A stretch of DNA of 64,000 nt from a virus. Numbering within the stretch: position 1 is the first letter of the stretch; each line of letters begins with the position of its first letter. A program made the position numbers and the translations under genes. A model generated the notes under the pieces. That model saw nothing but the letters and a program-made list of their open reading frames with translations. It made no database searches and was not told the origin of the DNA. The stretch is from the IMG/VR virus record IMGVR_UViG_3300044632_001278; one strand, written 5' to 3'. Below are positions 25,853 through 45,722 of the stretch, piece by piece.

Positions 25853-26929
25853 ATGAGCGATCTATTAAAAGAAAGCATTGCGGATGCAAAGGCTGTACGT
25901 GAAACAGCATTGGCAAATGCAAAGACCTTCCTCGAAGAAAGTTTTGCAAACAGTATGAAAGAAATGTTTGCAGATAAACTCAAGGAAGAAATGGCAGAAG
26001 AAACCGAAGCACCAGAAGGTGAAGAAGGCAAGATTGAAGAAAAACTTGCATCTTCTAACATTGGTAAGGATGACAGCAATGTTGCTACAAAACAACACCC
26101 AACCAAACCATCACCAGCTTCAAATAAAAACACAACTCCAGCAGGTAAGCAAGAATTCGACGTAAAGCTTGAAGAAGAAGCTGCCGTTGAAGAAGGTGCT
26201 GAAGTAACTAGTGAAGAACTAGACGAAATTCTAGCAGAACTAGAAGGTGAAGTAGTATCCGAAGGAGATTCCGACGATGCCGGTGAATCTGATGATTCAA
26301 TGGAAGAAGAAATTAATCTAGACGAACTTCTAGCAGAACTAGAAGGCGAAGATCCAGCAGCTGCACCAGCACCTGCTCCAGCTCCAGAAGCTCCTGTTGC
26401 TCCAGCCGCTCCAGCTGCTGAAGTACCAGCTCCAGCCCCAGCTCAAGTTCCATCTCCTTCAGAAGGTGAATACTCAGAAGAAGTATCCGCTGAAGAAATG
26501 GCAGAAGCTCTAGTAGCTATCAACGAAGAAAACGAACAACTAAAGTCTCAATTGAGCGAACACATCAAGACTGTAAAGTATTTGAAGAGTGTTCTATCTG
26601 AAACAAATCTATTGAATGCTAAGTTGCTCTACACCAACAAATTGTTCAAAGGTAAAGCTCTTACCGAAGATCAAAAGTTGAAGATCATCAACACTTTCGA
26701 CTTGACCAAGAATATTCGTGAAGTCAAGTTGGCATATACAGTTTTAGCCGAATCACTTAATTCCGGTGCATCAGTTGTCAAGAAAAAGACCAATACAACT
26801 GCTCAAACTATCACCGAAGGTTTGGCAAGCAAACCAGTATCCAGTACAAAGCCTGATTCTACCATTGTAGAACCTCAAGCTGAAGTAATGGCTTCAAGAT
26901 TCCAAAAACTCGCAGGAATCAAGAAGTAA
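25853..26929 (+). CDS. Prohead scaffold/core protein
   Basis: Very acidic, Pro/Ala linker, coiled coil, ends FQKLAGIKK; directly upstream of the capsid gene; SD-like AAGAAAGG before ATG 25853. Confidence 0.8.
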   Translation: MSDLLKESIADAKAVRETALANAKTFLEESFANSMKEMFADKLKEEMAEETEAPEGEEGKIEEKLASSNIGKDDSNVATKQHPTKPSPASNKNTTPAGKQEFDVKLEEEAAVEEGAEVTSEELDEILAELEGEVVSEGDSDDAGESDDSMEEEINLDELLAELEGEDPAAAPAPAPAPEAPVAPAAPAAEVPAPAPAQVPSPSEGEYSEEVSAEEMAEALVAINEENEQLKSQLSEHIKTVKYLKSVLSETNLLNAKLLYTNKLFKGKALTEDQKLKIINTFDLTKNIREVKLAYTVLAESLNSGASVVKKKTNTTAQTITEGLASKPVSSTKPDSTIVEPQAEVMASRFQKLAGIKK

Positions 26930-26981
26930 TTAGTTTGCGAGTAAAAACCTAACAGTAATTAATATAGAAAGAAACAAAAAT

Positions 26982-28808
26982 ATGAGTATGGATGTAAAAA
27001 GTCTATTGACAGGAAATATGAATCCACAAGCCAAATTGATGGCTGAAACACGTGGACTACAATCCAAGTGGGAAAAGACAGGCCTCCTAGAAGGTTGCCA
27101 AGGTGTTGAAAAAGCACATATGTCAATCCTATTGGAAAACCAAGCAAAACAATTGCTTGACGAAGCAACCACCACCGGTACCTCTACCAGTTCAGAACAA
27201 TGGGCTGGTGTAGCTCTACCATTGGTACGTCGTGTATTCGCTGAAATCGCCGCTAAGGAATTCGTCAGCGTACAACCAATGAATCTACCATCTGGTCTAA
27301 TTTTCTATCTAGACTTCAAGTATGGTACAACCGCTCCTGGTAGTGATTTGCGTAACTTGAACAACGGTAGTTCCGTAACTACCCGTGCAGGTAAGCAATT
27401 GAACGACAGTTTGTTTGGTGGTACAGGTAAGAAGTTGGGTTCAACTGATGACGCAGTACGTGGTCTATACGGTCAAGGTGCTTTTGCTTATTCAGTTCGT
27501 CCAGTAAGTAGCTCTGCTATTACCCTAGCTAAGAGTGCAACTGCAACCGCAACTGGTAACACCATCCAAACCGCTTCTTGGAACGACGTTCAATTTGCTG
27601 CTGAATTAAGCGCATCTGTCGTAGCTAAGAAGTTGTTCAAGGTTATCTTGAACCACGACGACAACACCACTGGTGTTGCTGGTCAAGGATATATGTACAA
27701 CGTTGACTTGAACGCAGTACGTTCATTCAACTTGATTTCAGGTTCAGTTGCACCAACTTCTCTAAGAAGCAATGGTTTGGTATTGAACACCTATTCAAAA
27801 GCAATTAACACTGGTAGTTTGAGCAATCCATTCTATCAATCCGTATATATCGTATCCGCTTCTAATAGCGCATTCGGTGGTGCAGCAAGCAACGTTAAGT
27901 TGATCTATAGTCTACAACCTACCGATAACCTACGTGGTGACTTCGAAGCTGGTAAGACCCCAGGTGAAGGTTCCGGTACCGCTGGTAACGTTCCTACACA
28001 AAGCATCGATACTGATATCAGTATCCCAGAAGTAAACTTGGTACTAAACAGCGAACCAATCGTTGCTAAGACCCGTAAGTTGAAAGCAGTCTGGACCCCA
28101 GAATTGGCTCAAGACTTGAACGCATATCACTCCATCGACGCAGAAGCAGAACTTACTGCTCTATTGAGTGAATATGTATCTATGGAAATCGATCTTGAAA
28201 TCCTAGACATGTTGAACGAAGCCGTTCAAGGCATAACAACCGAAGCTTGGTCCGCCCAAATCGGTGTTGAATTCAGCAAGGGATTGAATGCAACTACTGG
28301 TGAAGCAATCTTCACACGTAATGCAAACAGTTCACCAAACCGTACTGCTTACGTAAAGAGCACTTGGTTCCAAACTCTTGGAAACAAGATCCAAAAGGTA
28401 TCTAACACAATCCAAAAATTGACCCTACGTGGTGGTGCAAACTTCTTGGTCGTAAGTCCAGACGTTGCAACTATCCTAGAATCAATCCCAGGATATGTAG
28501 TAAACACTGATGGTGATCAAGCTAAGTTCGCAATGGGCGTAAGCCGCGTTGGTAGCTTTGCTTCTCGCTTCCAAGTTTACAAGAACCCATACATGACCGA
28601 TAACGTAGTATTGGTTGGTTTCCGTGGAAACAACTTCCTAGAAACCGGTGCTGTATATGCTCCATATATCCCACTAATCCAAACTCCATTGGTCTATGAT
28701 CCAGTGAACTTCACTCCACGTAGAGGCGTAATGACCCGCTACGCTAAGAAGGTAGTGCGCCCAGAGTTCTATGGAAAAGTTATTATCGGCGATCTCGATA
28801 CCGTATAA
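26982..28808 (+). CDS. Major capsid protein (T4 gp23-like)
   Basis: LPLVRRVF, VQPMNLPSGLIFYLDF, KTRKLKAVWTPELAQDLNAYH, EIDLEI, YAPYIPL, GVMTRYA. Confidence 0.95.
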   Translation: MSMDVKSLLTGNMNPQAKLMAETRGLQSKWEKTGLLEGCQGVEKAHMSILLENQAKQLLDEATTTGTSTSSEQWAGVALPLVRRVFAEIAAKEFVSVQPMNLPSGLIFYLDFKYGTTAPGSDLRNLNNGSSVTTRAGKQLNDSLFGGTGKKLGSTDDAVRGLYGQGAFAYSVRPVSSSAITLAKSATATATGNTIQTASWNDVQFAAELSASVVAKKLFKVILNHDDNTTGVAGQGYMYNVDLNAVRSFNLISGSVAPTSLRSNGLVLNTYSKAINTGSLSNPFYQSVYIVSASNSAFGGAASNVKLIYSLQPTDNLRGDFEAGKTPGEGSGTAGNVPTQSIDTDISIPEVNLVLNSEPIVAKTRKLKAVWTPELAQDLNAYHSIDAEAELTALLSEYVSMEIDLEILDMLNEAVQGITTEAWSAQIGVEFSKGLNATTGEAIFTRNANSSPNRTAYVKSTWFQTLGNKIQKVSNTIQKLTLRGGANFLVVSPDVATILESIPGYVVNTDGDQAKFAMGVSRVGSFASRFQVYKNPYMTDNVVLVGFRGNNFLETGAVYAPYIPLIQTPLVYDPVNFTPRRGVMTRYAKKVVRPEFYGKVIIGDLDTV

Positions 28809-28832
28809 TACTTAGTAGAAATAAAATAACTC

Positions 28833-28862
28833 AAAAACCCCAACGAAAGTTGGGGTTTTTTC
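28833..28862 (+). terminator. Rho-independent terminator after capsid gene
   Basis: AAAAACCCCAAC-GAAA-GTTGGGGTTTTT. Confidence 0.9.
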
Positions 28863-28881
28863 TTGCACTAATAAAAAATAA

Positions 28882-28910
28882 TTGACATTACCATAGAACT
28901 TGTATATACT
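28882..28910 (+). promoter_or_regulatory. Sigma70-type promoter for endonuclease
   Basis: TTGACA-17 nt-TATACT, 8 nt before ATG. Confidence 0.8.
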
Positions 28911-28918
28911 TATATTAT

Positions 28919-29662
28919 ATGAAAAGTGGTATATACAAAATTACAAATGTTAAGAATGGCAAGTTTTATATTGGTTCTGCTAAAGATATTGATCGTCGTT
29001 GGTGGGAACATAAAAATGATTTAAAAAAGAATAAACATAAGAATCCTAAATTACAACACGCTTGGGATTTTTACGGGGAAAACAGTTTTGAATTTATTAT
29101 ATTAGAAAATGTAATAGAATGTGAATTGTTTAAACGAGAACAATTTTATTTAGATATGTTTAAACCCTATATGCGTGATATAGGTTATAATATTACCCCA
29201 ACCGCAAGTGGAGGCGATAATTTTACACATAATCCTGATAAAGAAGAAACTCGTCAGTTACTATCTGATATTAATCTAGGAGCTAAAAATCCTATGCACG
29301 GTAAAAAGCATAGTGATGAGGCTAAAGAAAGGCAACGTGATCGTGCTGTAGGACGTTATACTTTGGAGTGGTTTGTTGACAAGTATGGTATTGACAGTGG
29401 TACACTTAAGTACAAGGAGAGAAATGACAAATTGGCTAATCGTAATATTAATTACAGTTATGATAATGGATTAAAAGGCAAAAAGCGTGGTGCTATGAGT
29501 GATGAAATGAAACGTAAGATTAGTGAACAAAAGAGAAATTTTGCGCTTAGAAAGAATGAATTTGTTGATGATTTAAAGAGTGGTAGTTTTACTAACAATG
29601 CATTAAGTGAGAAGTATGGAGTATCATTAACCACGATCAAATTACATAAAAGAAAATATTAG
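28919..29662 (+). CDS. Free-standing GIY-YIG homing endonuclease (NUMOD3-type DNA-binding tail)
   Basis: SGIYKITN...FYIGS, REQFYLD, GYNI, NPMHGKKHSDEAK. Confidence 0.9.
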   Translation: MKSGIYKITNVKNGKFYIGSAKDIDRRWWEHKNDLKKNKHKNPKLQHAWDFYGENSFEFIILENVIECELFKREQFYLDMFKPYMRDIGYNITPTASGGDNFTHNPDKEETRQLLSDINLGAKNPMHGKKHSDEAKERQRDRAVGRYTLEWFVDKYGIDSGTLKYKERNDKLANRNINYSYDNGLKGKKRGAMSDEMKRKISEQKRNFALRKNEFVDDLKSGSFTNNALSEKYGVSLTTIKLHKRKY

Positions 29663-29664
29663 TT

Positions 29665-29913
29665 TTATTTTATTTCCCAAGGAAAATGTCCACTTAAAAT
29701 ACAAACAATCCAAAATTTACATCTACATATAAAACTTACAAAGTATAATCTTATAAGTCCAATTATTACTTTGATCCACATATATTCCCAATGTCTAAAT
29801 TGTTTATTTTGCGTAAATAAATTAATAATAAACAGTTTCGGGTTTGTTTTTACGAATAATAAATCTTCTTTGTATCTGGATTTTACATCCTTTAATGTAA
29901 TATAGTCTTTCAT
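29665..29913 (-). CDS. Small hypothetical, partly hydrophobic protein
   Basis: 82-aa ORF directly downstream of the Mom-like gene. Confidence 0.45.
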   Translation of the reverse strand: MKDYITLKDVKSRYKEDLLFVKTNPKLFIINLFTQNKQFRHWEYMWIKVIIGLIRLYFVSFICRCKFWIVCILSGHFPWEIK

Positions 29914-29917
29914 ATTT

Positions 29918-30691
29918 TTATTCGAAAAATTCGTTGGTAGATGTTACAACGATTTCTTGTACTTCTTCTTTGAACGAAGTATCTTTGGGGTAAGGTAGAA
30001 CTTTATGTTTAAGAGATTTAGTCAACTTTTTATTTTCTATTTTGTTACTGATAAACTTGATATAACGATGTTTACCACTTTCTCGTTTGCGCCAGAATGT
30101 TCTACCAATACGTTCTTTTAGTTTATCTACGCTGTGTGTTTTCCATCTTGAATATACACTTCTGCTGTGTATCCAATCATAGTTAGGAGGACCAACTAAA
30201 CTAACACTATAGTTAGGCATTATAGCGATATCTACATAGTTATCGCCTTGATATAGAAAGCCAGTTGCTTGATAGATTGTGCCTGCGTGTCCAGCTTCAC
30301 TATCCGCATAACTGAGAATACATTTGATGTGGGGATATTCAGTATTTAATAATCTAAAGCTTTCAGCTATACAATAACTTTCTATATTTTTACCATAACC
30401 ATCTGCAATCCACAGTCGTGTTAATTCTAACACATTGTTATTAGTAAGTAGTGAAGAGATACTGGTACTAGCATTTCTACCCACGGCGTTTCCATATACT
30501 AATACACCTATTAATCGTTCGTTAAAACCACCAAAGAATGTACTCTCTACATATTCTTTATAGTATACTCCATAAGCTACAGTACAAAGAGACCACTTGT
30601 GTGTATAATGATTCTTTTCAATAAGAGTTTTTGCAACATTCTTATTGATGCTTTTGATGTAAATTAATGTGGGGTCAAAATACTCCGACAT
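29918..30691 (-). CDS. Mom-like (GNAT-fold) DNA modification protein
   Basis: KNHY, ELTRLW, LSYAD...GHAGTIYQATGFLYQG, KHRY. Confidence 0.75.
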   Translation of the reverse strand: MSEYFDPTLIYIKSINKNVAKTLIEKNHYTHKWSLCTVAYGVYYKEYVESTFFGGFNERLIGVLVYGNAVGRNASTSISSLLTNNNVLELTRLWIADGYGKNIESYCIAESFRLLNTEYPHIKCILSYADSEAGHAGTIYQATGFLYQGDNYVDIAIMPNYSVSLVGPPNYDWIHSRSVYSRWKTHSVDKLKERIGRTFWRKRESGKHRYIKFISNKIENKKLTKSLKHKVLPYPKDTSFKEEVQEIVVTSTNEFFE

Positions 30692-30697
30692 TATTTC

Positions 30698-30725
30698 AGT
30701 ATAACCATATAACTCTAACTGTCAA
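30698..30725 (-). promoter_or_regulatory. Sigma70-type promoter for Mom-like gene
   Basis: Minus strand TTGACA-16 nt-TATACT, 6 nt before ATG. Confidence 0.75.
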
Positions 30726-30728
30726 GAT

Positions 30729-30941
30729 TTATATTATATAAAAAAGACCTTTGGAATTATATACTACAGTTCTAATTTTGGTAGCATTAATCTTATTGAT
30801 ACCAAGTCTATCTATTACTTGAAATGGATCAGGGTGATTATTTATAGGAGCTGCCATAACTCTATCCTTTATTTTGTATACATCCAAGTCTGTATTAACA
30901 ATACTTGGATGATATTGTCTTACTAAAGGCATTGTTCTCAT
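30729..30941 (-). CDS. Small hypothetical protein
   Basis: 70-aa ORF overlapping the cyclase stop codon (ATGA). Confidence 0.5.
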   Translation of the reverse strand: MRTMPLVRQYHPSIVNTDLDVYKIKDRVMAAPINNHPDPFQVIDRLGINKINATKIRTVVYNSKGLFYII

Positions 30942-32713
30942 ACTGGTTTATTTGTTGTTGGTTCTGCTTTCTTTACTCTACTAGATGGAAATGATTTGTT
31001 ACCAAAATCACTACCGTGTAAACTATACAAATGCATAACTACACCGTGTTTTACAACCACATCCCCCAAGTCATTTACTAATACATATGGTGGTCTATCA
31101 TATTTTAACATTACTGCTGAACTAACCAACAAATGATTGCTTTCACCTGCATCCATTACTCTTTGAGCATAGTTGATACCATCACCACTGATATTGAGAT
31201 TGCCATTAATATCTTCCATTGGTATTACAGGTCCACAATGTACACCCATTCTCATTTGTAAATCCGGTCTATCCTTTACTGCTTTAGCTATAGTAACTGC
31301 ACAATTCATTGCATCTTCCAAATAAGTAAAGAATCCCAATACCATACCGTCACCAGTAGGTAATATAATTAACTTTTCAAGCGCATTAGCTGTTTTGTAT
31401 TGCATTGTAGACTTAACCAATGCACCCAAATCTTTACAAGCCTTCTTTTGTTCATCTGTTGTTTTCTTACTATAAGCAACAATATCCATAAAGAATATAT
31501 AACCTTCTTGTTCTACGTCCAATTGCAATCTACCAGATTTGACTTCTACATCAACTTGTTCAACTTTCTTGACAACTTGTTTGACGGGTTTAACAACTTC
31601 TACCTTCTTTTCTTCTTTCTTTTCTACCACTGGAATATCTTTAAGTTTCAAGAAATCTTTCCAGTTAATTTTCTTAGCTGGTGCATCTTTTTTCTTTGGT
31701 TCTTTTGATGCTTGTTCTTCTTCGTGTTTCTTTATTGCAGCTTCTTCACGATTACGTTTTTCAACAAACAATGCAATTTGCTTTTTAACTTCATCTGTGA
31801 TGTATATGTTTACATCTTTTCCACCACCACCAATATCGTGTTTCTTTTTTCTTTGAGCACCTTTGGATTGCAGATATGTTTGCATTTCTACATTACCCGT
31901 CTTAAATGCCAAATCCAACGGAGCAATTTCACCTTTGAAATCTGCACCGTTAACATTCGCACCCAAATGTACCAAAAATTCCACCATATCAACATCGTTA
32001 GCGTTAACGGCATAATGTAGTGGCATCCATCCATTCTTTTCATCTCTGCCATTGATTTTACCATCTTTATCAAAGAACGATTGTACACCTTCAAAATCTC
32101 CTGTTTCTGCGCAGAAATGAATACTAACACCTCCTGCGGATTTAGCACCGTACTTATTCAATAACTTAACAATGTCACCTCTATTGGTATTGGATAGTAC
32201 GTCAATAGGATTATTTTTACCCAAGAAATCTTTCTTGTTAACATCAGCTCCTCTTACAATTAGATATTCAACCAAGTGTTTTTGTCCGTAATTTACTGCA
32301 TAATGTAGTGCGGTCCAACCTTTGCCAGCGTCAACTTCATTGATATCAAATCCCTTGTCTAACATTTCTTCAATAGAAACGATATCACCATTTTTTGCGG
32401 CTAAATGGAAACTACTACCGCTACTGTATTTTGCACCTCTTTGTTGTAGTATTTCTGCGATATTTTTAAAACCTTTTTGTTCAGCTACATCCAGTGCTGT
32501 ATTTTTACTGGTCCAATCTTTACAGTTGGGATCTGCACCGTGATTTAACAGTAGTTTTACGATTTCCACTTGATTTTCTTCTACAGCAACAACCAATGGT
32601 GGATTGCCTGTATCATCGTCTCTTTGATTGACATCTACTTTTTCTTTTTCGATACAGTTGTAGACGTTATCGTATAACCCACGTTTGATGTGGGTAAAAA
32701 TGTTAATAGCCAT
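30938..32713 (-). CDS. Ankyrin-repeat protein fused to class III nucleotidyl (adenylate/guanylate-type) cyclase
   Basis: About 9 ANK repeats (GWTALHYAV, GADVN); C-terminal FMDIVAYS, TGDG, RMGVHCGPV, GDGINYAQRV. Confidence 0.88.
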   Translation of the reverse strand: MAINIFTHIKRGLYDNVYNCIEKEKVDVNQRDDDTGNPPLVVAVEENQVEIVKLLLNHGADPNCKDWTSKNTALDVAEQKGFKNIAEILQQRGAKYSSGSSFHLAAKNGDIVSIEEMLDKGFDINEVDAGKGWTALHYAVNYGQKHLVEYLIVRGADVNKKDFLGKNNPIDVLSNTNRGDIVKLLNKYGAKSAGGVSIHFCAETGDFEGVQSFFDKDGKINGRDEKNGWMPLHYAVNANDVDMVEFLVHLGANVNGADFKGEIAPLDLAFKTGNVEMQTYLQSKGAQRKKKHDIGGGGKDVNIYITDEVKKQIALFVEKRNREEAAIKKHEEEQASKEPKKKDAPAKKINWKDFLKLKDIPVVEKKEEKKVEVVKPVKQVVKKVEQVDVEVKSGRLQLDVEQEGYIFFMDIVAYSKKTTDEQKKACKDLGALVKSTMQYKTANALEKLIILPTGDGMVLGFFTYLEDAMNCAVTIAKAVKDRPDLQMRMGVHCGPVIPMEDINGNLNISGDGINYAQRVMDAGESNHLLVSSAVMLKYDRPPYVLVNDLGDVVVKHGVVMHLYSLHGSDFGNKSFPSSRVKKAEPTTNKPV

Positions 32714-32728
32714 AGTTTAATTAGTAAA

Positions 32729-33106
32729 TTAGTCTTTTTTGAAACGGCTTAAATCCAATTGAGGTAGTGGTTTTTCTATGTTTAGACCAGCTAGTCTTTC
32801 ATTTTGGATAACTAATTTACTTCCGCCTACAACCTTACCATCTACTACGTCATATATGAAAAATACAGTTTTTGTAAGTCCCACACGAACAATTCTGCCG
32901 GGTTTGCCATCAATATATACAACATCATCTTCTTTGTAATCGGACCCAATAAACATAAACAGTGCCGCGGCAAGTTTTTCAATGCTTGATTTAAACATTA
33001 GAATTACTAATCCCGCTACGAACATCCAGACATATTTGCCTGTCATATCTTGTGCGGTTGATTCTAGTACCTGTTGAGATATTACGTGTGCTGTATTTGT
33101 ATCCAT
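32729..33106 (-). CDS. Small membrane protein with MscS-like beta domain
   Basis: TM segment then DDVVYIDGKPGRIVRVGLTKTVF; ATG at 33106 preferred over 33136. Confidence 0.55.
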   Translation of the reverse strand: MDTNTAHVISQQVLESTAQDMTGKYVWMFVAGLVILMFKSSIEKLAAALFMFIGSDYKEDDVVYIDGKPGRIVRVGLTKTVFFIYDVVDGKVVGGSKLVIQNERLAGLNIEKPLPQLDLSRFKKD

Positions 33107-33181
33107 AATCGTCTTTAGTTTATTAACACATAACATTTGTTAACAATCCAAAACAATTATATAATAAATATAAATATTAAT

Positions 33182-34147
33182 TTATTTAATCCACTTTTGT
33201 TCTTTTAGAATATCATCAATCAATTCTTTTTCGGAACTATCCATTTCTTTATCAAATCTTTTCAATACTTCAGTCAATGGATATACTCTATCAGGAGATT
33301 CTTTTTGTTTTTCTTTTAGTTCTTGAATTACATCAACTATTTTAACAAGTGGAGACTTGAATTCATCAACTTTGTCTTTTGAAGCGAAGTTAGCCAATTC
33401 AAATGCATGTGGAGTTAATGCTTTTACCAAACTTAGTAATCCAGAACCAATCATATTAAATATACTAAATGCTGCACCAGCTGCTGGATGTACTGTTGCT
33501 AATATTCTTAATATAACAAATACCACAACAAATATGATAATTGCGGTCATTGCACTAACAAAGAACTTTTTTAAACCCCAAAATACAGCATTAAGACCAA
33601 ACATACCACTCATAGCATCCAAAGTAGCCTTGCTTTGATCAGCTTCTTTTGCAATTTCTTTTGCTTTATCAGTCATTTGCCATAATTCATCGTCATACTT
33701 TTCTTTCAAAGCAGACTTTTCTTTTTGCAATTTGTTTATGATTTCGTCACGTTGTGATAGTAATTGATCACCCTTTTTTCTTTCCTCAGCAACTTGACTG
33801 TTTAATAAATCAACGGTAGCTTTTATACGTTTAATTTCATCTATGTGTGGTGATCCAACTATAGAAATTACACGTTCATTGAGTGATTTAGCAGTATCTA
33901 CTTGTACTGACGGGTTTGTTACTTGACTTAAAGAGTGTTGAATACCTATAGACAAAGACGATGCTTGTACACGTTTGCCTTTTTCTACTTTTTCCAACTC
34001 TACCATCGTATTATCTACTTTGGCTTCTTGTTTAGCAACAGCGTCTTGTGCAGTTGTAACTTGCTTCGCCGGTCTAACTTCAGACGAAATACAACCGGTT
34101 AGTATTAAAATTACGATGGTGTAAAACAGTTGTTTTTTAAAGTTCAT
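33182..34147 (-). CDS. Lipoprotein with coiled coil and C-terminal TM helix (unimolecular spanin-like)
   Basis: Lipobox LTGC at residues 16-19, long helical region, TM FFVSAMTAIIIFVVVFVIL. Confidence 0.6.
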   Translation of the reverse strand: MNFKKQLFYTIVILILTGCISSEVRPAKQVTTAQDAVAKQEAKVDNTMVELEKVEKGKRVQASSLSIGIQHSLSQVTNPSVQVDTAKSLNERVISIVGSPHIDEIKRIKATVDLLNSQVAEERKKGDQLLSQRDEIINKLQKEKSALKEKYDDELWQMTDKAKEIAKEADQSKATLDAMSGMFGLNAVFWGLKKFFVSAMTAIIIFVVVFVILRILATVHPAAGAAFSIFNMIGSGLLSLVKALTPHAFELANFASKDKVDEFKSPLVKIVDVIQELKEKQKESPDRVYPLTEVLKRFDKEMDSSEKELIDDILKEQKWIK

Positions 34148-34192
34148 ATAATATAAATATTATTTTTTATAATAAAACTAATATTTATCAAT

Positions 34193-34801
34193 ATGATCAA
34201 ACTTAATGACTTAATAGAGAACGATTCGTTGTGTCCGATGGCACATCCTAAGAACATAGAACCAGTGATGAGTTCTTATTTACGTTATCATATTGACAAT
34301 AAAATTCCACTTAGCGAAAACATTTTTAGAACCTATAGTGAGTCTTATTTTGATTTAATCGAAGAAGTTCGTACTTTGTATTTTCAAAATTTAATAGAAT
34401 TGTGTGACGCTGACGCTGAATTGGTTGAAAGTGATTTGGGTAAAAAGGCTATATTTGAAGGTAGAGAAGTGTATTTGGATGCGCCTATCGAAGACGAAGA
34501 AGATTTATTGATGGAACTTAAGCATAGAGGACGCACTGTTAATTTAAGTAGACCATTTAGAACACCCGGCGGTCCTAAAAAATATGCTGTATATGTTAAA
34601 TCTAAGAATGGCAAAGTTAAAAAAGTAACATTTGGAGATCCAAATATGAGAAGCAGAGCTAGTAGCAAGGCTCGTCGTAAGAGTTTTGCAGCTAGACACA
34701 GATGTAGTCAAAAGAAAGATAGAACAACGGCTGGATATTGGAGTTGCAGAAGTCATAGAATGAAATCGTTGGGTAATAAAGGTAAAGGTAAATACTGGTA
34801 A
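34193..34801 (+). CDS. Conserved phage basic protein (putative head-internal)
   Basis: MIKLNDLIE start; PGGPKKYAVYV, VTFGDPNM, SFAARHRC, AGYWSC motifs. Confidence 0.7.
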   Translation: MIKLNDLIENDSLCPMAHPKNIEPVMSSYLRYHIDNKIPLSENIFRTYSESYFDLIEEVRTLYFQNLIELCDADAELVESDLGKKAIFEGREVYLDAPIEDEEDLLMELKHRGRTVNLSRPFRTPGGPKKYAVYVKSKNGKVKKVTFGDPNMRSRASSKARRKSFAARHRCSQKKDRTTAGYWSCRSHRMKSLGNKGKGKYW

Positions 34802-35067
34802 TGAGTCTACCGTTTATAGAAAACCCACTGGGTAACAGTCAGTATATAAGAGAATTTAGTTCCGATGTAGCTACTCACGAACTGGAATGGCATATAGATC
34901 GTGAAGACAGAACCGTTGAAGTTATAGAAAATAACAATTGGCACTTTCAATTAGATAATAATTTACCACAATTACTTAAAGAAACAATATTTATACCTAA
35001 AGAAACATACCACCGTGTAATAAAAGGCACAGGTAATCTAAAAGTAAGAATAACAAAACACATATGA
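34801..35067 (+). CDS. Small cupin-like protein
   Basis: EWHIDREDR...FIPKETYHRVIKG cupin-like His pattern. Confidence 0.55.
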   Translation: MSLPFIENPLGNSQYIREFSSDVATHELEWHIDREDRTVEVIENNNWHFQLDNNLPQLLKETIFIPKETYHRVIKGTGNLKVRITKHI

Positions 35068-36383
35068 AATTTATTGATTTATTAACAGAAGTTAAAATGT
35101 ACGAAACACTTGGGTTACCTGATGACAGTATTATCCCACTAGATACGTTTGTATGTGAATGTAAAAATTGCGTAAATCAATCTCTATATGAAGCTATAAA
35201 TGATACCGATAACAATTTAAAGATATGTTTGACTGAAGCGAACAAAAAGGAGCCTATTAGTTTTGAGTTGGCCGAATTAATGAAGAATATTGCCCGAGAC
35301 ACTCAAGGAAGATTAAAACTGTTGAGTGTATTAAACGATCCAAAAACACTGAAGTCTTTCTTAGATGACAAAGGATATTTGACTGCAATTTTATATTTGG
35401 CTCCCTCTGATTCATCAGGTCACGAAGTGTGTCCAAAGAAAAGTCCGGAATGTAACGCTGGTTGTTTGAATTTTGCTGGTAACCCTGCATATCTAAAAGC
35501 AAAATTAGCAGCAAGAGCTAGAAAAACTCGTTGGTTGTTTGGTGACAAATTGACATCTGATGAGATGAAAAATATTCCTACAGATCCAAAAATTATAGAT
35601 AGATTTTATGGCAAAGGTAGACCCGGACCCGAAGGTAAACGTGGTAGAATATTGAATCCAATGCGTCCTGAAGACTTCATTGAAAGATTGCAAATTGAAA
35701 TGGAGTTTTTGAAAAAAGTGGCTGCTAAATACAATTTAAAGTTATCGGTTAGATTAAACGGTACGAGCGATCTTGATTTTCATAAAAAATTGGAAAGTTG
35801 GAAATCTGCAAATCCAGATGTTAAATTTTATGACTATACAGCCGTGTTTAAATGGGCAATGCAAAGTCTTGAAGATCCTTCAAAACCACATATGACTTTT
35901 TCAAGAAAAGAAACTTTACAAAACAATATAGAATGTGAAAAATATTTGAAGGCTGGTGGTAATATTTCCGCAATATTTGATGAATTACCAGAATATTATC
36001 GTGGTTATAAAGTAATTGATGCAGATAGAACCGATTTGAGATTTTTAGACGATAGTGATCGACCAATTGATCCTGATACAGGTAAACCCGTGGGTGTAAT
36101 CGCCGGATTAAAGATGAAGGGATTTAGATTAAAAGACGCATTTGCCTTGGGTATAATACAAAATAAGGGACCAGAAGATACATTCGTAATAAGAACCAAG
36201 GAATTGAGGAAAAGATTTGGAGATAAGTATTTTACACAAAAAATTCATTGGGGTGATCGCGCACCAACAGAGCCAAACAATATTACTGCTAAACAGATCT
36301 ATAAAGATAAAATCAAGAATTATTTAAATAAAATATCAAGTAAATTGAAAGGTACAGCTGATAAAACGGATGAAAAAATATGA
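35064..36383 (+). CDS. Gp88-like Cys-containing phage protein
   Basis: LYLAP, CPKKSPECNAGC, RLNGTSD, FYDYT, DLRFLD, GLKMKG; MKFIDLLTE start. Confidence 0.6.
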   Translation: MKFIDLLTEVKMYETLGLPDDSIIPLDTFVCECKNCVNQSLYEAINDTDNNLKICLTEANKKEPISFELAELMKNIARDTQGRLKLLSVLNDPKTLKSFLDDKGYLTAILYLAPSDSSGHEVCPKKSPECNAGCLNFAGNPAYLKAKLAARARKTRWLFGDKLTSDEMKNIPTDPKIIDRFYGKGRPGPEGKRGRILNPMRPEDFIERLQIEMEFLKKVAAKYNLKLSVRLNGTSDLDFHKKLESWKSANPDVKFYDYTAVFKWAMQSLEDPSKPHMTFSRKETLQNNIECEKYLKAGGNISAIFDELPEYYRGYKVIDADRTDLRFLDDSDRPIDPDTGKPVGVIAGLKMKGFRLKDAFALGIIQNKGPEDTFVIRTKELRKRFGDKYFTQKIHWGDRAPTEPNNITAKQIYKDKIKNYLNKISSKLKGTADKTDEKI

Positions 36384-36440
36384 TATGTGAATTAACAAAT
36401 TATAAACTGTATATTTTTGTTGTTTAGATATTTATAATTA

Positions 36441-37670
36441 ATGAGTGCTAATTTAGATCAAGATAGGGTAAGATGGCCTGGGAGTGGTAGTAGTGTTACT
36501 CAAAACACTGTGCCATTTGGTTATTACTTAAGCGAAAGTTGTAACACAGGATCTGGCGAAACTACTTTTGAAAATGATTGTAGTAGTAGTGCTATGTGGG
36601 CAGCAAAACGTTTGGGTTATCCTATTGTCGATATTGAAATGATCGATGTTAATTTTTATGCCTGTTTTGAAGAATCTGTATTGGAATATAACCGTGTAGT
36701 TAACGAATTCAACATCGTTAATAATATGGTAAATTTACAAGGATTACCACAAAACCAATACAAAAATTTAACAGGTCTAGGAGTAAAAAGTACAGGATTG
36801 CCTTTTATAATTCAATTGAGCAAACAATATGGTGCAGAAGCACTTGTTGGTGGCGAATATGAAGTTAAACGCAATTATATTACTGTCAGTGGCAGTGTTA
36901 ATCCAAGCAGCACACAACAAGTTTATGACTTAAATCAATTGATTGGTAAAGATATTGAACACTTGACAGGCTCTCGTATCGAAGTTAAACGTGTATTTCA
37001 CCAAAGACCGCCAGCAATTGCTCGTATTTATGATCCGTTTAGTATGACTGGTATGAGTTATAGTAACGTACTAACAGAAATGGGATTTAGCGCATACAGT
37101 CCTGCTACACAATTCTTAATGACTCCGATCTTTGAAGACTTGGAACGTGTACAAGCTATTGAGTTTAATGATATGGTTCGTAAAAGCGCATATAGTTTTG
37201 AAATTCTAGGTAATAATAAGTTGAGAATATTTCCAATTCCAACCGACAATTTCAAAGTTTATATAGATTATATAGTTGAAAGTGAACGTGATATTACCAA
37301 CTTTTATAGTGGATCTCGTTATGAATACATTAGCGATCCAAGTGATATACCATACGAATACTGTACATATTGTAAGATAAATCAACCAGGCAAACAGTGG
37401 ATCAAGAAATATTTCTTGGCTTTGTGCAAAGAAACATTGGGACGTATATTACAAAAATATAGTACAGTACCAATTCCAGGTGGCGAAGTAACTCTTGACG
37501 GTGCGGAGTTACGTTCTGAAGCCAAGGAGGAAAAAGACACATTGCTTGATAAATTGAGAGATATGTTGGAAAAAACCTTGCGAGTCAATCAATTGGAAAA
37601 TAAAGGTAAGGAAAGCGAAGAAATGAATAAGATGCTTTCCAGAGTACCACTACACATTTATATAGGATAA
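36441..37670 (+). CDS. Neck/head-tail adaptor (T4 gp13-like)
   Basis: AKRLGYPIVDIE, WIKKYFLALCKE.LG...KY...IPGGEVTLDG. Confidence 0.8.
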   Translation: MSANLDQDRVRWPGSGSSVTQNTVPFGYYLSESCNTGSGETTFENDCSSSAMWAAKRLGYPIVDIEMIDVNFYACFEESVLEYNRVVNEFNIVNNMVNLQGLPQNQYKNLTGLGVKSTGLPFIIQLSKQYGAEALVGGEYEVKRNYITVSGSVNPSSTQQVYDLNQLIGKDIEHLTGSRIEVKRVFHQRPPAIARIYDPFSMTGMSYSNVLTEMGFSAYSPATQFLMTPIFEDLERVQAIEFNDMVRKSAYSFEILGNNKLRIFPIPTDNFKVYIDYIVESERDITNFYSGSRYEYISDPSDIPYEYCTYCKINQPGKQWIKKYFLALCKETLGRILQKYSTVPIPGGEVTLDGAELRSEAKEEKDTLLDKLRDMLEKTLRVNQLENKGKESEEMNKMLSRVPLHIYIG

Positions 37671-39704: not shown

Positions 39705-42700
39705 ATGTCAACATTAAAGAAAGATCCATGCGAGGTTTCTCCAATAAAATTGGATAATGCTCTGTATGATTATAAAAAATTAACAGCGACTTTTAAAGAT
39801 CCTACCACAGAGCTGTTTCTTAAAATAATCGACGAATTACGTAAAATTATTTATTGTCGAACCAGTTCTCAGTTTTTCAACAATGTTGCTACTAAACAAA
39901 TACCATGCGATCAAAAATCAAAAACTTGGGTATTTGATCATAATTTAAACTCAGATCTAGTATTAATTCAAACATACGACGAGAATTTCAATCAATTAAT
40001 ACCAGAAACAATAGTACTCAATAATGATAATACCGCAACCATAACTTTTTCGTTTGATGCATGCGGATACATCATAGGTGTAAGCGGTAATATCAGCACC
40101 AGTGGTACTTCAGGCACAGGCACCAGTGGTAGTAGTGGTAGTAGCGGAGAAAAAGGATCAGCTGGATCAAGCGGAACAAGCAATACAAGCGGCACAAGCG
40201 GTACAAGCACATCTTCAGGTACCAGTGGTAGTCAAGGCACAAGCGGTACAAATGGTGAGGGTGGTAGTAGCGGTCAAAGTGGCGATATAGGAACCAGTGG
40301 AACTAGTGGAGAAAATGGAAGCAGTGGTACAAGCGGTAGTAGTGGTTTATTAGATGGATCAAGCGGATCAAGTGGTACAAGTACTACAAGCGGTACAACC
40401 GGCACAAGTGGCACAAGAGGATCAAGCGGTAGATCAGGCACCAGTGGAAGCAGCGGAACAAGTGGTAGTAGCGGAACAAGTGGTACTAGTGGTACAAGTG
40501 GTACCAGTGGTACAAGTGGCACAAACGGTACTAGTGGTAGCAGTGGCACCAGTGGTACAAGCGGATCTAGTGGCACAAGTGGTACAAATGGATCAAGTGG
40601 TACAAGTGGTAGCAGCGGATCAAGTGGTACAAGTGGATCAAGTGGTACAAGTGGTACAAGCGGATCTAGTGGCACCAGTGGTACTAGTGGTACGAGTGGT
40701 ACCAGTGGGTCAAGTGGATCGAGCGGATCTAGTGGCACAAGTGGCACATCTGGTATAAGTGGAAGCAGTGGTTCAAACGGCACAAGCGGCACAAATGGCA
40801 CCAGTGGCACAAGTGGTACTAGTGGAACAAGTGGTACAAGTGGTACAAGCGGTACAAGTGGATCATCTGGTAATAGTGGATCATCCGGTAGTAATGGGAC
40901 AAATGGCACCAGTGGTACAAGCGGCACAAGTGGTACAAGCGGTACTAGTGGTACAAGCGGAACAAGTGGTACAAGTGGTACAAGCGGTACAAGCGGTACT
41001 AGTGGATCAAGTGGATCAAGTGGGTCAAGTGGATCAAATGGTACAAACGGCACTAATGGTACAAATGGCACTAGTGGTACAAGCGGCACTAGCGGTACAA
41101 GTGGTACCAGTGGTACAAGTGGATCAAGTGGGTCAAGTGGGTCAAGTGGGTCAAGTGGATCAAGTGGATCTAATGGAACAAATGGTACCAGTGGTACAAA
41201 TGGTACCAGTGGTACTAGCGGAACAAGTGGTACAAGCGGTACTAGCGGATCAAGTGGTTCAAGTGGTTCAAGTGGGTTAAGTGGTTCAAGTGGTTCATCT
41301 GGTACTAGCGGATCGTCTGGCAGTAGCGGAACAAGTGGATCTAATGGCACAAACGGCACAAGTGGTACTAGCGGCACAAGTGGTACTAGCGGCACAAGTG
41401 GTACTAGCGGCACAAGTGGATCAAGTGGATCAAGTGGTACTAGTGGATCAAATGGTACAAGCGGATCTAACGGCACAAATGGCACAAGTGGATCAAATGG
41501 TACAAGTGGAACGAGTGGTACAAGCGGTACAAGTGGTAGTAGTGGAACAAGTGGTACAAGTGGTAGTAGTGGAACAAGTGGATCAAATGGCACAAGTGGT
41601 ACTAGCGGATCAAACGGCACAAGTGGATCTAATGGCACAAGTGGTACTAGTGGTACAAGCGGTACTAGTGGTACAAGCGGTACTAGTGGATCGAGTGGAT
41701 CAAGTGGATCAAGTGGATTAAGCGGTTCAAGTGGATCATCTGGTACTAGCGGATCAAGTGGATCATCTGGTACCAGCGGATCCAATGGAACGAATGGAAC
41801 AAGTGGATCGTCCGGTACTAGCGGATCAAGTGGATCGTCTGGTACTAGCGGATCAAGTGGATCATCCGGTACAAGTGGATCTAATGGAACAAGTGGTACT
41901 AGCGGATCTAACGGTACCAGTGGTAGCAGTGGCACAAGTGGTACAAGCGGATCAAGTGGTACTAGCGGTACAAGTGGATCAAGTGGATCAAGTGGTTCAA
42001 GTGGTTCAAGCGGATCAAGTGGCAGTAGTGGTACTAGTGGATCAAACGGTACTAGTGGTACAAGCGGTACAAACGGTACTAGTGGTTCAAGTGGTTCAAG
42101 TGGATTAAGTGGATCAAGTGGATCATCTGGTACAAGCGGATCAAGCGGTAGTAGTGGATCATCTGGTACAAGCGGATCTAATGGTACAAGCGGTAGTAGT
42201 GGATCAAATGGTACCAGTGGCACAAGTGGCACAAGTGGTACAAGTGGATCTAATGGTACAAGCGGTAGTAGTGGCACAAGCGGTAGTAGTGGATCATCTG
42301 GAACAAGTGGATCTAATGGCACAAGCGGTACAAGTGGTAGCAGTGGATCTTCTGGTATAAGTGGTAGTAGTGGAACGAGTGGCACAAGCGGTAGTAGTGG
42401 AACAAGTGGTAGTAGTGGATCAAATGGCACAAGCGGATCAAATGGTACTAATGGTACTAACGGTACTAACGGTACAAGTGGTACATCTGGTAGTAGTGGA
42501 ACAAGTGGTACTAGTGGAACAAGTGGATCATCTGGAACAAGCGGATCTAATGGTACAAGTGGAACAAGTGGGTCAAACGGTACAAGCGGTAGTAGTGGAA
42601 CAAGCGGTACTAGTGGTACTAGTGGCACAAGTGGTACTAGTGGCACAAGTGGTACTAGTGGATCATCTGGTATAAGTGGAACAAGCGGATCAAACGGCAC

Positions 42701-45700
42701 AAGTGGTACAAGCGGATCAAACGGCACAAGTGGTACAAGCGGTACTAGTGGCACAAGTGGTACAAGCGGTACTAGTGGCACAAGCGGTACAAGTGGTAGT
42801 AGTGGATCAAGTGGTACTAGTGGATCAAATGGCACAAGCGGCACAAGCGGCACTAGTGGTACTAGTGGTACGAGCGGATCTAATGGCACAAGCGGTACTA
42901 GTGGAACAAGTGGATCTAATGGCACAAGTGGTACAAGCGGCACAAGTGGTACAAGTGGGTCAAGTGGATCAAATGGTACAAGTGGGTCAAGTGGATCAAG
43001 CGGTACAAGTGGGTCAAATGGATCAAGCGGTACAAGTGGATCTAATGGCACAAGTGGCACAAGTGGTAGTAGTGGATCTTCTGGTATAAGTGGCAGCAGT
43101 GGTACAAATGGAACAAGCGGCACCAGTGGCGTAAGTGAATCAAGTGGATCAAGTGGAAGCAGTGGTACTAGTGGCACAAGTGGATCCAACGGTACAAGTG
43201 GCAGTAGTGGTACAAGTGGTACAAGTGGTAGTAGTGGTACAAGTGGATCAAATGGAAGCAGTGGCACAAGTGGAAGCAGTGGTACTAGTGGCACAAGTGG
43301 ATCTAACGGTACAAGTGGTACTAGTGGTACTAGTGGTACTAGTGGTACAAGCGGTACTAGTGGTAGTAGCGGATCGTCTGGTATAAGTGGGTCAAGTGGA
43401 TCAAGTGGCACAAGTGGTACAAGCGGATCGAACGGCACCAGTGGGTCAAGTGGATCAAGTGGATCAAGTGGCACAAGCGGATCAAGTGGATCAAGTGGTA
43501 CAAGCGGATCTAACGGTACAAGCGGATCTAACGGTACAAGTGGCACAAGTGGATCCAACGGTACAAGTGGTAGTAGCGGATCGTCTGGTATAAGTGGTAG
43601 CAGTGGAACAAACGGCACCAGTGGTACAAGTGGCACAAGTGGTATAAGCGGATCAAACGGTACAAGTGGTAGTAGCGGATCGTCTGGTACTAGCGGATCA
43701 AGTGGATCTAACGGTACAAGTGGTACAAATGGTACTAGTGGCACAAGCGGTACAAGTGGATCTAATGGTACCAGTGGTAGCAGTGGCACAAGTGGTACAA
43801 GCGGATCAAGTGGTACTAGTGGCACAAGCGGAACAAGTGGAACAAGCGGCAGTAATGGATCAAGTGGCACAAGTGGTATAAGTGGGTCAAATGGTACTAG
43901 TGGCACAAGCGGTACTAGTGGTAGTAGCGGATCGTCTGGTGTAAGTGGATCAAGTGGATCAAGTGGGTCAAGTGGGTCAAGTGGATCAAGTGGGTCAAGT
44001 GGATCAAGTGGTACAAGTGGATCAAGTGGGTCAAATGGTACTAGTGGCACAAGCGGAACAAGTGGATCAAGTGGGAGCAGTGGTACCAGTGGCACTAGTG
44101 GTACGAGTGGATCAAATGGTACCAGTGGAACGAGTGGAACAAGTGGTATAAGTGGGTCAAATGGTACAAATGGTACTAGTGGCACAAGTGGAACAAGTGG
44201 ATCAAGTGGTAGCAGTGGTACTAATGGTACTAGTGGTACAAGTGGTATAAGCGGATCAAATGGCACCAGTGGAACAAGCGGAACAAGTGGTACCAGTGGT
44301 ACTAGTGGTAGCAGTGGTACAAGCGGATTTAGTCGTGATAGTGGTAGCAGTGGTAATAGTGCCACAAGTGGTAGTAGTGGTACAAGTGGTAGTAGCGGTA
44401 CAAGTGGAACAAGTGGTAGCAGTGGTCAAAACGGAACAAGCGGAACAAATGGAACGAGTGGCACTAGCGGAACAAGTGGAACTAGTGGTAGCAGTGGTAG
44501 CAGTGGTATTAGTGGTAGCAGTGGTAGAAATGGAACCAGTGGTACAAGTGGCACAAGCGGAACAAGCGGAACAAGTGGTACTAGTGGTAGCAGTGGTACA
44601 AGCGGATTTAGTCGTGATAGTGGTAGCAGCGGTAATAGTGCCACAAGTGGTAGTAGTGGTACAAGTGGTAGTAGCGGTACAAGTGGAACAAGTGGTAGCA
44701 GCGGTCAAAACGGAACAAGCGGTACTAGTGGCACAAGCGGAACCAGTGGTAGTAGTGGTAGTAGTGGTAGCAGTGGTACAAGTGGTACAAGTGGTACGAG
44801 TGGTCGAAATGGAACCAGTGGTACAAGTGGTACAAGCGGAACCAGTGGTACAAGTGGAAGTAGTGGTACAAGCGGATTTAGTCGTGATAGTGGTAGCAGC
44901 GGTAATAGTGCCACAAGTGGTAGTAGTGGTACAAGTGGTAGTAGTGGAACGAGCGGCACAAGTGGTAGTAGCGGTCAAAACGGAACAAGTGGAACAAACG
45001 GAACAAGTGGCACAAGTGGAACGAGCGGAACAAGTGGTAGCAGTGGCACAAGTGGTCGAAATGGAACCAGTGGAACAAGTGGTAGCAGTGGTACGAGTGG
45101 CACAAGCGGAACGAGTGGTAGTAGTGGTACTGTTGGTACAAGTGGAACAAGTGGTGTAAGTGCTGGTGGAGGTGCTAGTGCTAGTAGTGGAAGTAGTGGT
45201 ATAAGTGGAACTAGTGGTAGCAGTGGTACGAGTGGCACTAGTGGTATTAGTGCTCCTAGTGGTACCAGTGGAATTAGTGGTGGTAGTTTTACTGATCAGC
45301 CTAATTATTTGGTAAAAACTACTGGTCTTACTACGTTACAGAGTGTTAATTTTTTAAGTGTGGATGGTACTACATTAACAGTTGTTGGAACTGTTAGTGC
45401 TACTACATTGATAGAAACGTCTAGTGAAAATACTAAAACGGATATTATGCCTTTATTGCCGCCGCAATTGGACAAGATTGTGTTATTGAATCCGGTGACA
45501 TTTAGGTATAAGAACAACAATGAATTTAGTATTGGTTTGATAGCTGAAGAGGTTGTGAAGATATATCCTGAATTTGTTAGTTATGATGAGTTGGGTAATA
45601 TATCTGGTATAAATTATAGTAAATTGACAGCTGTATTGATACAGGGTGTTAAAGAATTGAAGCAGATAGTTGATGAACAACAAATAACAATAAATCGATT

Positions 45701-45713: not shown

Positions 45714-45722
45714 TTATATTAT

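Follow-up and report, generated by a model that had tools for sequence, protein, structure and literature searches.

A predicted ankyrin-linked class III nucleotidyl cyclase in an accessory gene island of lake-water T4-like phages

Phages destroy or sequester the cyclic-nucleotide signals of their hosts, and cyclic mononucleotides made by phages themselves are essentially unstudied. Whether a phage might make such a signal, which one and to what effect is the question raised by a gene on the minus strand of a 64,000-nucleotide stretch of viral DNA, hereafter the window, from IMG/VR record IMGVR_UViG_3300044632_001278 (75.6 kb; CheckV completeness 32%). The original prediction, made from the letters of the window alone, read this gene as an ankyrin-repeat nucleotidyl cyclase with unusual specificity residues, acting as a sensor-coupled second-messenger enzyme. 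The window carries no tRNA genes. For its Gp23-type capsid protein, Microcystis phage Mel-JY01 and the Flavobacterium 'immuto' phages have counterparts of 49-50% identity. In the literature searched, we found no report of a phage class III cyclase, of a phage ankyrin-cyclase or of a relevant 'PTGDG' motif. The reading that we favour, with moderate confidence, is that the gene encodes an active homodimeric class III cyclase, gated or tethered by its ankyrin domain, which would raise a 3',5'-cyclic nucleoside monophosphate (cNMP) late in infection for host receptors to read.

The coding sequence and the three parts of its product are laid out as follows:

30938-32713, minus strand: ankyrin-cyclase coding sequence, one uninterrupted open reading frame of 591 amino acids (aa) with no stops
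31844-32713, minus strand: ankyrin domain, residues 1-290, nine repeats forming three ~97-aa units
31532-31843, minus strand: Lys/Glu-rich linker, residues 291-394, delimited by the AlphaFold2 (AF2) model and by low conservation
30941-31531, minus strand: class III cyclase-homology domain, residues 395-591, recognized by PF00211, AF2, Foldseek and VIA-align

Three stretches of the N-terminal part match Pfam Ank_2 (E-values of 2.6e-38 for Ank_2 and 4.7e-37 for Ank), and in the full-length AF2 model residues 1-283 fold into 18 helices, i.e. nine helix pairs or repeats, so that the tandem 33-residue helix-turn-helix units matching Ank models that define the ankyrin-repeat class are present. Pairwise identity among the three ~97-aa units is 36-38%. 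The linker is the least conserved segment of the protein (44-54% identity across phage clades); in the same model its predicted local distance difference test score (pLDDT) falls below 50 at residues 291-306, 338-347 and 360-392, around a single long helix at 307-337, and it is followed by a compact alpha/beta domain at ~400-566. Matches in PHROGs and NCBIfam concern the ankyrin part only. The layout originally described, three by three ankyrin repeats followed by a Lys/Glu linker and a class III cyclase, is borne out by Pfam, the AF2 model and the unit identities, and every motif quoted for it is found at the codon level: MDIV at residues 409-412, ILPTGDG at 450-456, NISGDG at 507-512 and INYAQR at 513-518.

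Is the C-terminal domain a class III cyclase? The Pfam family Guanylate_cyc (PF00211) matches with 23.2 bits over the whole protein and 26.0 bits over residues 385-591, above the cut-off of 21.9 by a small margin and over profile positions 93-182 only. Modelled alone with 45 homologues, the domain reaches a pLDDT of 95.6 and a predicted template modelling score (pTM) of 0.91, and the top Foldseek matches of this AF2 model are the catalytic domains of adenylyl and guanylyl cyclases, with probability 1.00. VIA-align superimposes it, with Z 19-20 and a root-mean-square deviation of 2.3-2.8 over 156-165 residues, on the mycobacterial class IIIc-type adenylyl cyclases Rv1264 (1y10/1y11), Ma1120 (4wp9) and Rv1900c/LipJ (cyclase-homology domain; 1ybt/1ybu), with which the fold is shared. 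The modelled domain thus unambiguously displays the beta-alpha-beta-beta-alpha-beta catalytic fold of class III.

The roles of individual residues were assigned from HMMER alignments to 3mr7 (Silicibacter pomeroyi) and 1ybt (Rv1900c), and their conservation was counted among the top 149 representatives of the bacterial subfamily described below:

31484-31486, minus strand: D410, first metal-binding Asp (FMDIV), aligned to the metal Asp of 3mr7 and 1ybt; 149/149
31361-31363, minus strand: L451, at the adenine-selecting Lys position (K-T-T-G-D of 3mr7 against L-P-T-G-D)
31349-31351, minus strand: D455, second metal-binding Asp (LPTGDG); 149/149
31250-31252, minus strand: R488, phosphate-binding Arg (RMGVHCG), aligned to the Arg of 3mr7 'YRIGINIG'; 149/149
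31160-31195, minus strand: N507 (Asp position) and N514/R518 (transition-state pair), within NISGDGINYAQR, from the 3mr7 alignment

Here D-I-F-G-D-A-V-N-V-A-A-R of 3mr7 pairs with N-I-S-G-D-G-I-N-Y-A-Q-R. The metal-binding aspartates, the Asn/Arg pair and the phosphate-binding arginine that characterize class III cyclases are all in place, and D410, D455, R488, N514 and R518 are invariant across 18 aligned ankyrin-cyclases. The canonical base-selecting pair, Lys/Asp for ATP or Glu/Cys for GTP, is replaced by L451/N507. What had been read from the motifs, namely that both metal aspartates and the N..R pair are retained and that the adenine-selecting Lys and Asp are substituted, is confirmed by the alignments to 3mr7 and 1ybt and, for the retained residues, by their near-invariance in the 149 representatives. 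The L451/N507 departure concerns the assignment of a substrate, not membership in the fold family.

We asked how far this pair extends outside phages. Using phmmer, we searched 1.8 billion representatives exhaustively and obtained 4742 representative clusters with E<=1e-3, of which 550 reach E<=1e-30; across the entire domain, the best subfamily representatives are 40-50% identical. Among the top 149, the Lys position (451) is occupied by Leu (129), Ile (15) or Val (3), and the Asp position (507) by Asn in 142; N514 is found in 147 and R518 in all, and P452, T453, Q517 and D521 are near-invariant as well. The members are cellular, with the domain fused to TPR arrays, Ser/Thr kinases or ankyrin repeats, and the genome matches come mainly from Acidobacteriota, and also from Verrucomicrobiota, Chthonomonadaceae and metagenome-assembled genomes (MAGs) of Burkholderiales/Gammaproteobacteria. 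With Leu and Asn in 129/149 and 142/149 of these bacterial sequences, the pair is, as judged from residue counts, the norm of a large bacterial subfamily and not a phage innovation. A subtype 'LPTGDG...INxAQRVMD', which the original prediction had taken to be common in Verrucomicrobia and Acidobacteria, accordingly exists, as seen from the 4742 clusters, the near-invariant motif and the genome matches. Members of this 'LPTGDG...N[VI][AS]GxGINxAQRxxD' subfamily (Acidobacteriota, Verrucomicrobiota and others) carry the same motif set as the phage protein, Leu/Asn included; they are cellular and mostly TPR or kinase fusions, whereas the ankyrin-fused branch is separate (Shimodaira-Hasegawa-like approximate likelihood ratio test, SH-aLRT, 100) and mainly viral. 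Rv0386 of M. tuberculosis, which has Gln/Asn at its base-selecting positions, is an adenylyl cyclase with guanylyl side activity, so that Asn at the Asp position is compatible with purine use.

Among solved structures, the subfamily profile matches best 3mr7 (1.5e-14), 1ybt (1.1e-11) and Ma1120 (2e-10). The mycobacterial enzymes and 3mr7 share the two metal aspartates and the phosphate-binding arginine with the phage protein; the Asn/Arg pair is shared with 3mr7, whereas Rv1900c has a His at the position of N514. Rv1900c likewise departs from the Lys/Asp rule, with an Asn at the Lys position. The phage protein is only 20-25% identical to these enzymes, differs from them by its Leu/Asn pair and by being phage-borne, and is fused to nine ankyrin repeats where the mycobacterial cyclases carry an alpha/beta-hydrolase or a pH-sensing domain.

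The anti-phage cyclases of the Pycsar/Pucsar systems (PycC, PucC) also have a class III core, non-canonical base-selecting residues and a link to phage biology, and a Pycsar-like chemistry had been hinted at originally. This hint does not hold: PADLOC gave ankyrin-type models only and no PycC match for the phage protein, and the subfamily profile matched 41 PDB sequences at E<=1, all of the adenylyl/guanylyl cyclase type and none a PycC chain. No PycC entry stands among the Foldseek and VIA-align matches listed either, which does not by itself decide the matter. At the cyclase locus, family searches of the neighbours, PF00027 included, found no adjacent effector combining a cyclic-nucleotide-binding (CNB) domain with a transmembrane (TM) or TIR domain. 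Furthermore, the phage enzyme is phage-encoded, whereas Pycsar cyclases lie in host defence islands, and it evolves slowly, whereas immune cyclase clades are long-branched (10.64898/2026.08.12.744502). On these comparisons we do not count the ankyrin-cyclase as a member of Pycsar.

We then considered how the gene is distributed and maintained among phages. In IMG/VR, 141 viral stretches match, from which 74 loci were kept, giving at least 74 viral loci with the gene. The copies fall into identity bands of >=91%, 73-75% and 32-40% and include genomes of 296 kb and 175 kb, and a different type of phage has a shorter, two-unit version beside DNA polymerase A. Near-identical DNA occurs in lake-water metagenomes from at least 10 independent studies; in the cultured-phage collection, the matches to the protein are ankyrin-only. 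Between phage copies, the ratio of nonsynonymous to synonymous substitution rates (dN/dS) is 0.03-0.09 for the cyclase domain, the best-conserved portion of the protein, ~0.05 for the ankyrin domain and 0.06-0.28 for the linker, which indicates a gene under strong purifying selection. A decayed host fragment, not conserved in related phages, had been named as one outcome that would overturn the cyclase proposal; it is excluded by the intact reading frame, the low dN/dS and the conservation over these loci.

Cellular orthologues are found on Verrucomicrobiota MAG chromosomes, with the same 590-aa architecture and ~70% identity (e.g. GCA_006365115.1, contig VFQT010000055.1). The identity between phage and Verrucomicrobiota proteins is 68% in the ankyrin domain, 47% in the linker and 86% in the cyclase domain. 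They differ from the phage gene in chromosomal setting, lying between ligA and a gene for a sulfatase of the formylglycine-generating enzyme (FGE) type, near HDOD, channel and flagellar genes, and in guanine-plus-cytosine (GC) content, with 61% in surroundings of 64% against 34-36% for the phage copies. The dN/dS of the bacterial orthologues is 0.02-0.06, and their distribution is narrow: three of the 81 species genomes of the family and one of the 201 sampled in the order. The saturation of synonymous sites indicates that the exchange between phage and cell is old. A second cellular three-unit ankyrin-cyclase (P0116; 609 aa, ENA ERZ27275609) lies 3' of gltB/gltD on a 14.5-kb contig and sits on a long branch in both the full-length and the domain tree. 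Against 20 non-ankyrin members, all the ankyrin-fused cyclase domains group in a single clade (SH-aLRT 100), so the fusion probably arose once. Both trees have a basal polytomy of four branches, namely phage clade A, which contains the window, clade B, the Verrucomicrobiota clade, and P0116 together with distant viral sequences; the far larger viral diversity mildly favours a long residence in phages. The sharing of the gene with Verrucomicrobiota hints at a verrucomicrobial host. Two further matches with a phage-type cyclase (73-95% identical) and 34-40% GC, L011 in a Gammaproteobacteria-labelled assembly (3.7 kb) and L013 in a Bacteroidetes MAG (7.5 kb), are probably phage contigs binned with cells, and might be either a hint of the host or binning noise.

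The surroundings of the gene were compared among relatives by anchoring each locus on the capsid gene, which delimits a variable island with the following members:

26929-36441: variable island, from the capsid gene to the gp13 gene
30729-30941, minus strand: orf70, 70 aa and conserved, its ATG overlapping the stop codon of the cyclase (ATGA); no family match
32729-33136 (likely start 33106, ~125 aa), minus strand: tm135, a small membrane protein with one TM helix and a part resembling the MscS beta-domain (PF00924)
33182-34147, minus strand: 321-aa lipoprotein-like membrane protein (lipobox LTGC, coiled middle, C-terminal TM region), described from its sequence; no family match

In relatives with 62-66% capsid identity the whole minus-strand cassette is missing, and the capsid gene is followed directly by homologues of orf202, orf88 and gp13. 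Closer relatives hold differing mixes of Mom, lipoprotein, TM protein, cyclase and orf70: nine with 72-74% capsid identity have Mom and mostly also the lipoprotein homologue, with no cyclase at the island, and where capsid identity is at least 88% and enough flank is available the cyclase is present in 10 loci and absent from four (L199, L202, L212 and L231). The gene is even absent from some phages whose capsid is more than 90% identical. One locus is a mosaic (L230; IMGVR_UViG_3300044971_004781), with a capsid 73% identical to that of the window and a cyclase, tm135 and lipoprotein 94, 92 and 96% identical, indicating a recent exchange and a cassette that moves between phages. By this comparative genomic evidence, the ankyrin-cyclase is an accessory gene of the 'moron' type, in a capsid-neck island of a lake-water T4-like phage.

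Two other genes of the island were observed. Between the capsid and Mom genes, at 28919-29662 (plus strand), lies a free-standing 247-aa GIY-YIG-type endonuclease ('GIYKITN...YIGSA'), present only in some close relatives, as expected of a homing endonuclease. At 29918-30691 (minus strand), on the strand of the cyclase cassette, is a member of the Mom family (PF25680, E 1.2e-44); this candidate enzyme of DNA modification is kept in relatives of 72-93% capsid identity even when they have no cyclase. Outside the island, positions 40001-46000 have a GC content of 0.43-0.49 within a 2002-aa reading frame (39705-45713), against ~0.33 elsewhere in the window.

The most faithful companion of the cyclase is orf70, whose copies in clades A and B are 61-100% identical and which still lies 3' of the cyclase in loci where the other neighbours differ (L011, L077 and L078); it is absent in L050, L081 and L103. 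Modelled as a complex with orf70, the full-length protein scored 0.00, the fold of the partner being uncertain, which speaks to binding in neither direction. In part of clade B, a protein of 199-205 aa takes the place of orf70 directly 3' of the cyclase (L081, 7795-8394; L103, 7769-8386; plus strand), with an N-terminal hydrophobic segment and a stretch that is PAS-like by eye only. On the other side, tm135 ends 15 nt before the cyclase start. Its match to MscS (PF00924, E 0.011) is below the cut-off; in clades A and B the copies next to the cyclase are conserved at 82-89%, and more diverged homologues, with 32-38% identity, are found no more than a few kb from distant ankyrin-cyclases (L012, L106, L111, L112 and L114). 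The order lipoprotein, TM protein, cyclase and, where present, orf70 is kept in both clades even with different flanks. Neither tm135 nor the lipoprotein has a match in 50,697 GenBank phage records.

The two co-oriented membrane genes of the original prediction are therefore present at their places, and it had been proposed that they could be effectors of the cyclase. Family searches found no cNMP-binding domain in either membrane protein, and PF00027 was not found in the record of the window or in two complete related phage genomes. Moreover, the pair and its homologues also occur apart from the cyclase. In L160 there is none within 10 kb of the lipoprotein/TM pair; L164/L165 have none in their 10-kb flanks, the cyclase of that contig (L091) being ~13 kb off; complete phage genomes of 47 kb and 52 kb have TM-protein homologues and no cyclase; and the four loci of high capsid identity that lack the cyclase (L199, L202, L212 and L231) keep the lipoprotein homologue. 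On this distribution, the effector proposal is not supported, and we regard the two membrane genes as forming a module of their own, often in the same island as the cyclase and probably on one transcript with it; this module is possibly lysis- or envelope-related, perhaps with a spanin-like or other envelope role.

Hints on expression come from a short motif and from metatranscriptomes. The motif occurs at two places in the cassette:

33169-33176, minus strand: TATTTATA, 5' of tm135/cyclase, candidate late-gene signal
34152-34159, minus strand: second copy of TATTTATA, 5 nt before the lipoprotein ATG, candidate late-gene signal

It is present in 22 copies in the window against 11.8 expected, about ten of them 4-34 nt before the starts of structural genes, and is thus a candidate late-gene signal. 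Contigs of three metatranscriptomes fall on the cassette, one of which bridges the TM/cyclase junction (32423-32848), with DNA carry-over being possible; two contigs cover the region of the cyclase/orf70 junction (30772-31087), the second bridging it by only 33 nt. The metatranscriptome shares are small, 0.05-0.12, and give only a hint of transcription in nature, stretches free of contigs being uninformative. Late co-transcription of the cyclase with tm135 is plausible from these data.

How would such an enzyme act? As class III cyclases do, the protein would form a homodimer and convert a nucleoside triphosphate to a 3',5'-cyclic nucleoside monophosphate in the infected cell. A late-type signal probably drives its gene together with that of the membrane protein upstream. 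Through the nine-repeat ankyrin domain, on its flexible and charged linker, the enzyme would be docked on, or regulated by, a conserved protein of the cell or of the phage. Since no CNB-type cyclic-nucleotide receptor was found in the record of the window or in two complete relatives, the signal would be read by receptors of the host; the three Verrucomicrobiota genomes with an orthologue that were searched have 7-9 CNB-domain matches each. The product is tentatively cyclic AMP (cAMP), relaxed purine use coming second; a pyrimidine or other product is possible and has no positive support. Of the second-messenger enzyme first proposed, the phage-borne and intact gene, its retained catalytic residues and its non-canonical pair stand, whereas the Pycsar hint and the membrane effectors are not supported. 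Rewiring of host signalling, exclusion of competing phages or timing of lysis, as first suggested, may be its effect.

Several points weigh against this reading. We found no assayed enzyme of the Leu/Asn subfamily in the literature searched, so that both activity and product are predicted only. A leucine is unable to make the Lys-N1 contact of canonical adenylyl cyclases, and the Pfam sequence match is marginal and restricted to the C-terminal half of the profile. The motif behind the late-promoter interpretation is short, and its enrichment is only about two-fold. As to the host, the gap between 35% GC in the phage and 61-64% in the Verrucomicrobiota argues against simply assuming that this lineage is the host.

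Could the enzyme instead serve in conflict, making a non-canonical messenger (cCMP, cUMP, cGMP or another) that jams or pre-empts cyclic-nucleotide immunity of the host or excludes competing phages? Neither purine-selecting residue is kept; the gene, like many conflict genes, is accessory and passes between phages; and in Pycsar-related cyclases a few changes of pocket residues suffice to shift base selectivity (PMC11224242; preprint 10.64898/2026.08.12.744502). However, the Leu/Asn pair is common to thousands of bacterial TPR and kinase fusions of the signalling type, the gene evolves slowly, unlike arms-race genes, neither PADLOC nor the subfamily profile at E<=1 points to PycC, the latter matching adenylyl/guanylyl cyclase structures, and family searches including PF00027 found no cognate effector in the phage; we consider this explanation unlikely. 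The conserved gene order in clades A and B despite differing flanks, the 15-nt spacing and the TM-protein homologues near distant ankyrin-cyclases would suit a membrane module in which the lipoprotein and the MscS-like TM protein are effectors, or a lysis-timing or exclusion device, controlled by the cNMP or by the ankyrin domain. Such a device is very unlikely given membrane proteins with no cNMP-binding domain that are found without the cyclase within 10 kb (L160) or ~13 kb from it (L164/L165), in complete 47-kb and 52-kb phages without a cyclase, and, for the lipoprotein homologue, in L199, L202, L212 and L231.

The catalytic domain might also be silent, in which case the protein would mimic its cellular orthologue as a mere ankyrin scaffold or decoy. 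No activity data for the subfamily were found in the literature searched and the ankyrin domain is itself strongly constrained (dN/dS ~0.05), but the five catalytic residues are invariant, the cyclase is the best-conserved portion and it is 86% identical between phage and Verrucomicrobiota despite a 26-point difference in GC, so we give this reading only a slight chance. We hold it equally improbable that the protein is an 'ankyphage'-like effector against eukaryotic grazers, released at lysis or exported by the host. In sponge phages, ankyrin proteins reportedly dampen the responses of phagocytes, repeats of this kind are typical of eukaryote-directed effectors, and there are partial NCBIfam matches to Legionella Ank effectors, all far below cut-offs; against this, an N-terminal signal peptide is not evident, the known cyclase toxins CyaA, EF and ExoY belong to class II and not class III, and the chromosomal orthologues lie among housekeeping genes. 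The predicted active, host-read class III cyclase remains the reading that we prefer.

What does this locus mean for phage and bacterial signalling? Nothing so far points to a new chemistry. It is quite unlikely, though it would be of wide consequence if true, that a widespread family of lake and marine phages carries the synthase of a non-cAMP messenger, targeted by its ankyrin domain, which would hijack or blind the cNMP signalling or immunity of the host, and that a Verrucomicrobiota lineage acquired the synthase gene in an exchange with phages and domesticated it. The gene is abundant in lake metagenomes and tightly constrained. The ~70%-identical pair, in a phage of 35% GC and a bacterium of 64% GC, is a clean case of an old exchange between phage and cell in which function was retained. 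The phage gene also offers a compact and expressible entry to a cyclase subfamily of thousands of bacterial members, all of which would be annotated by the identification of its product.

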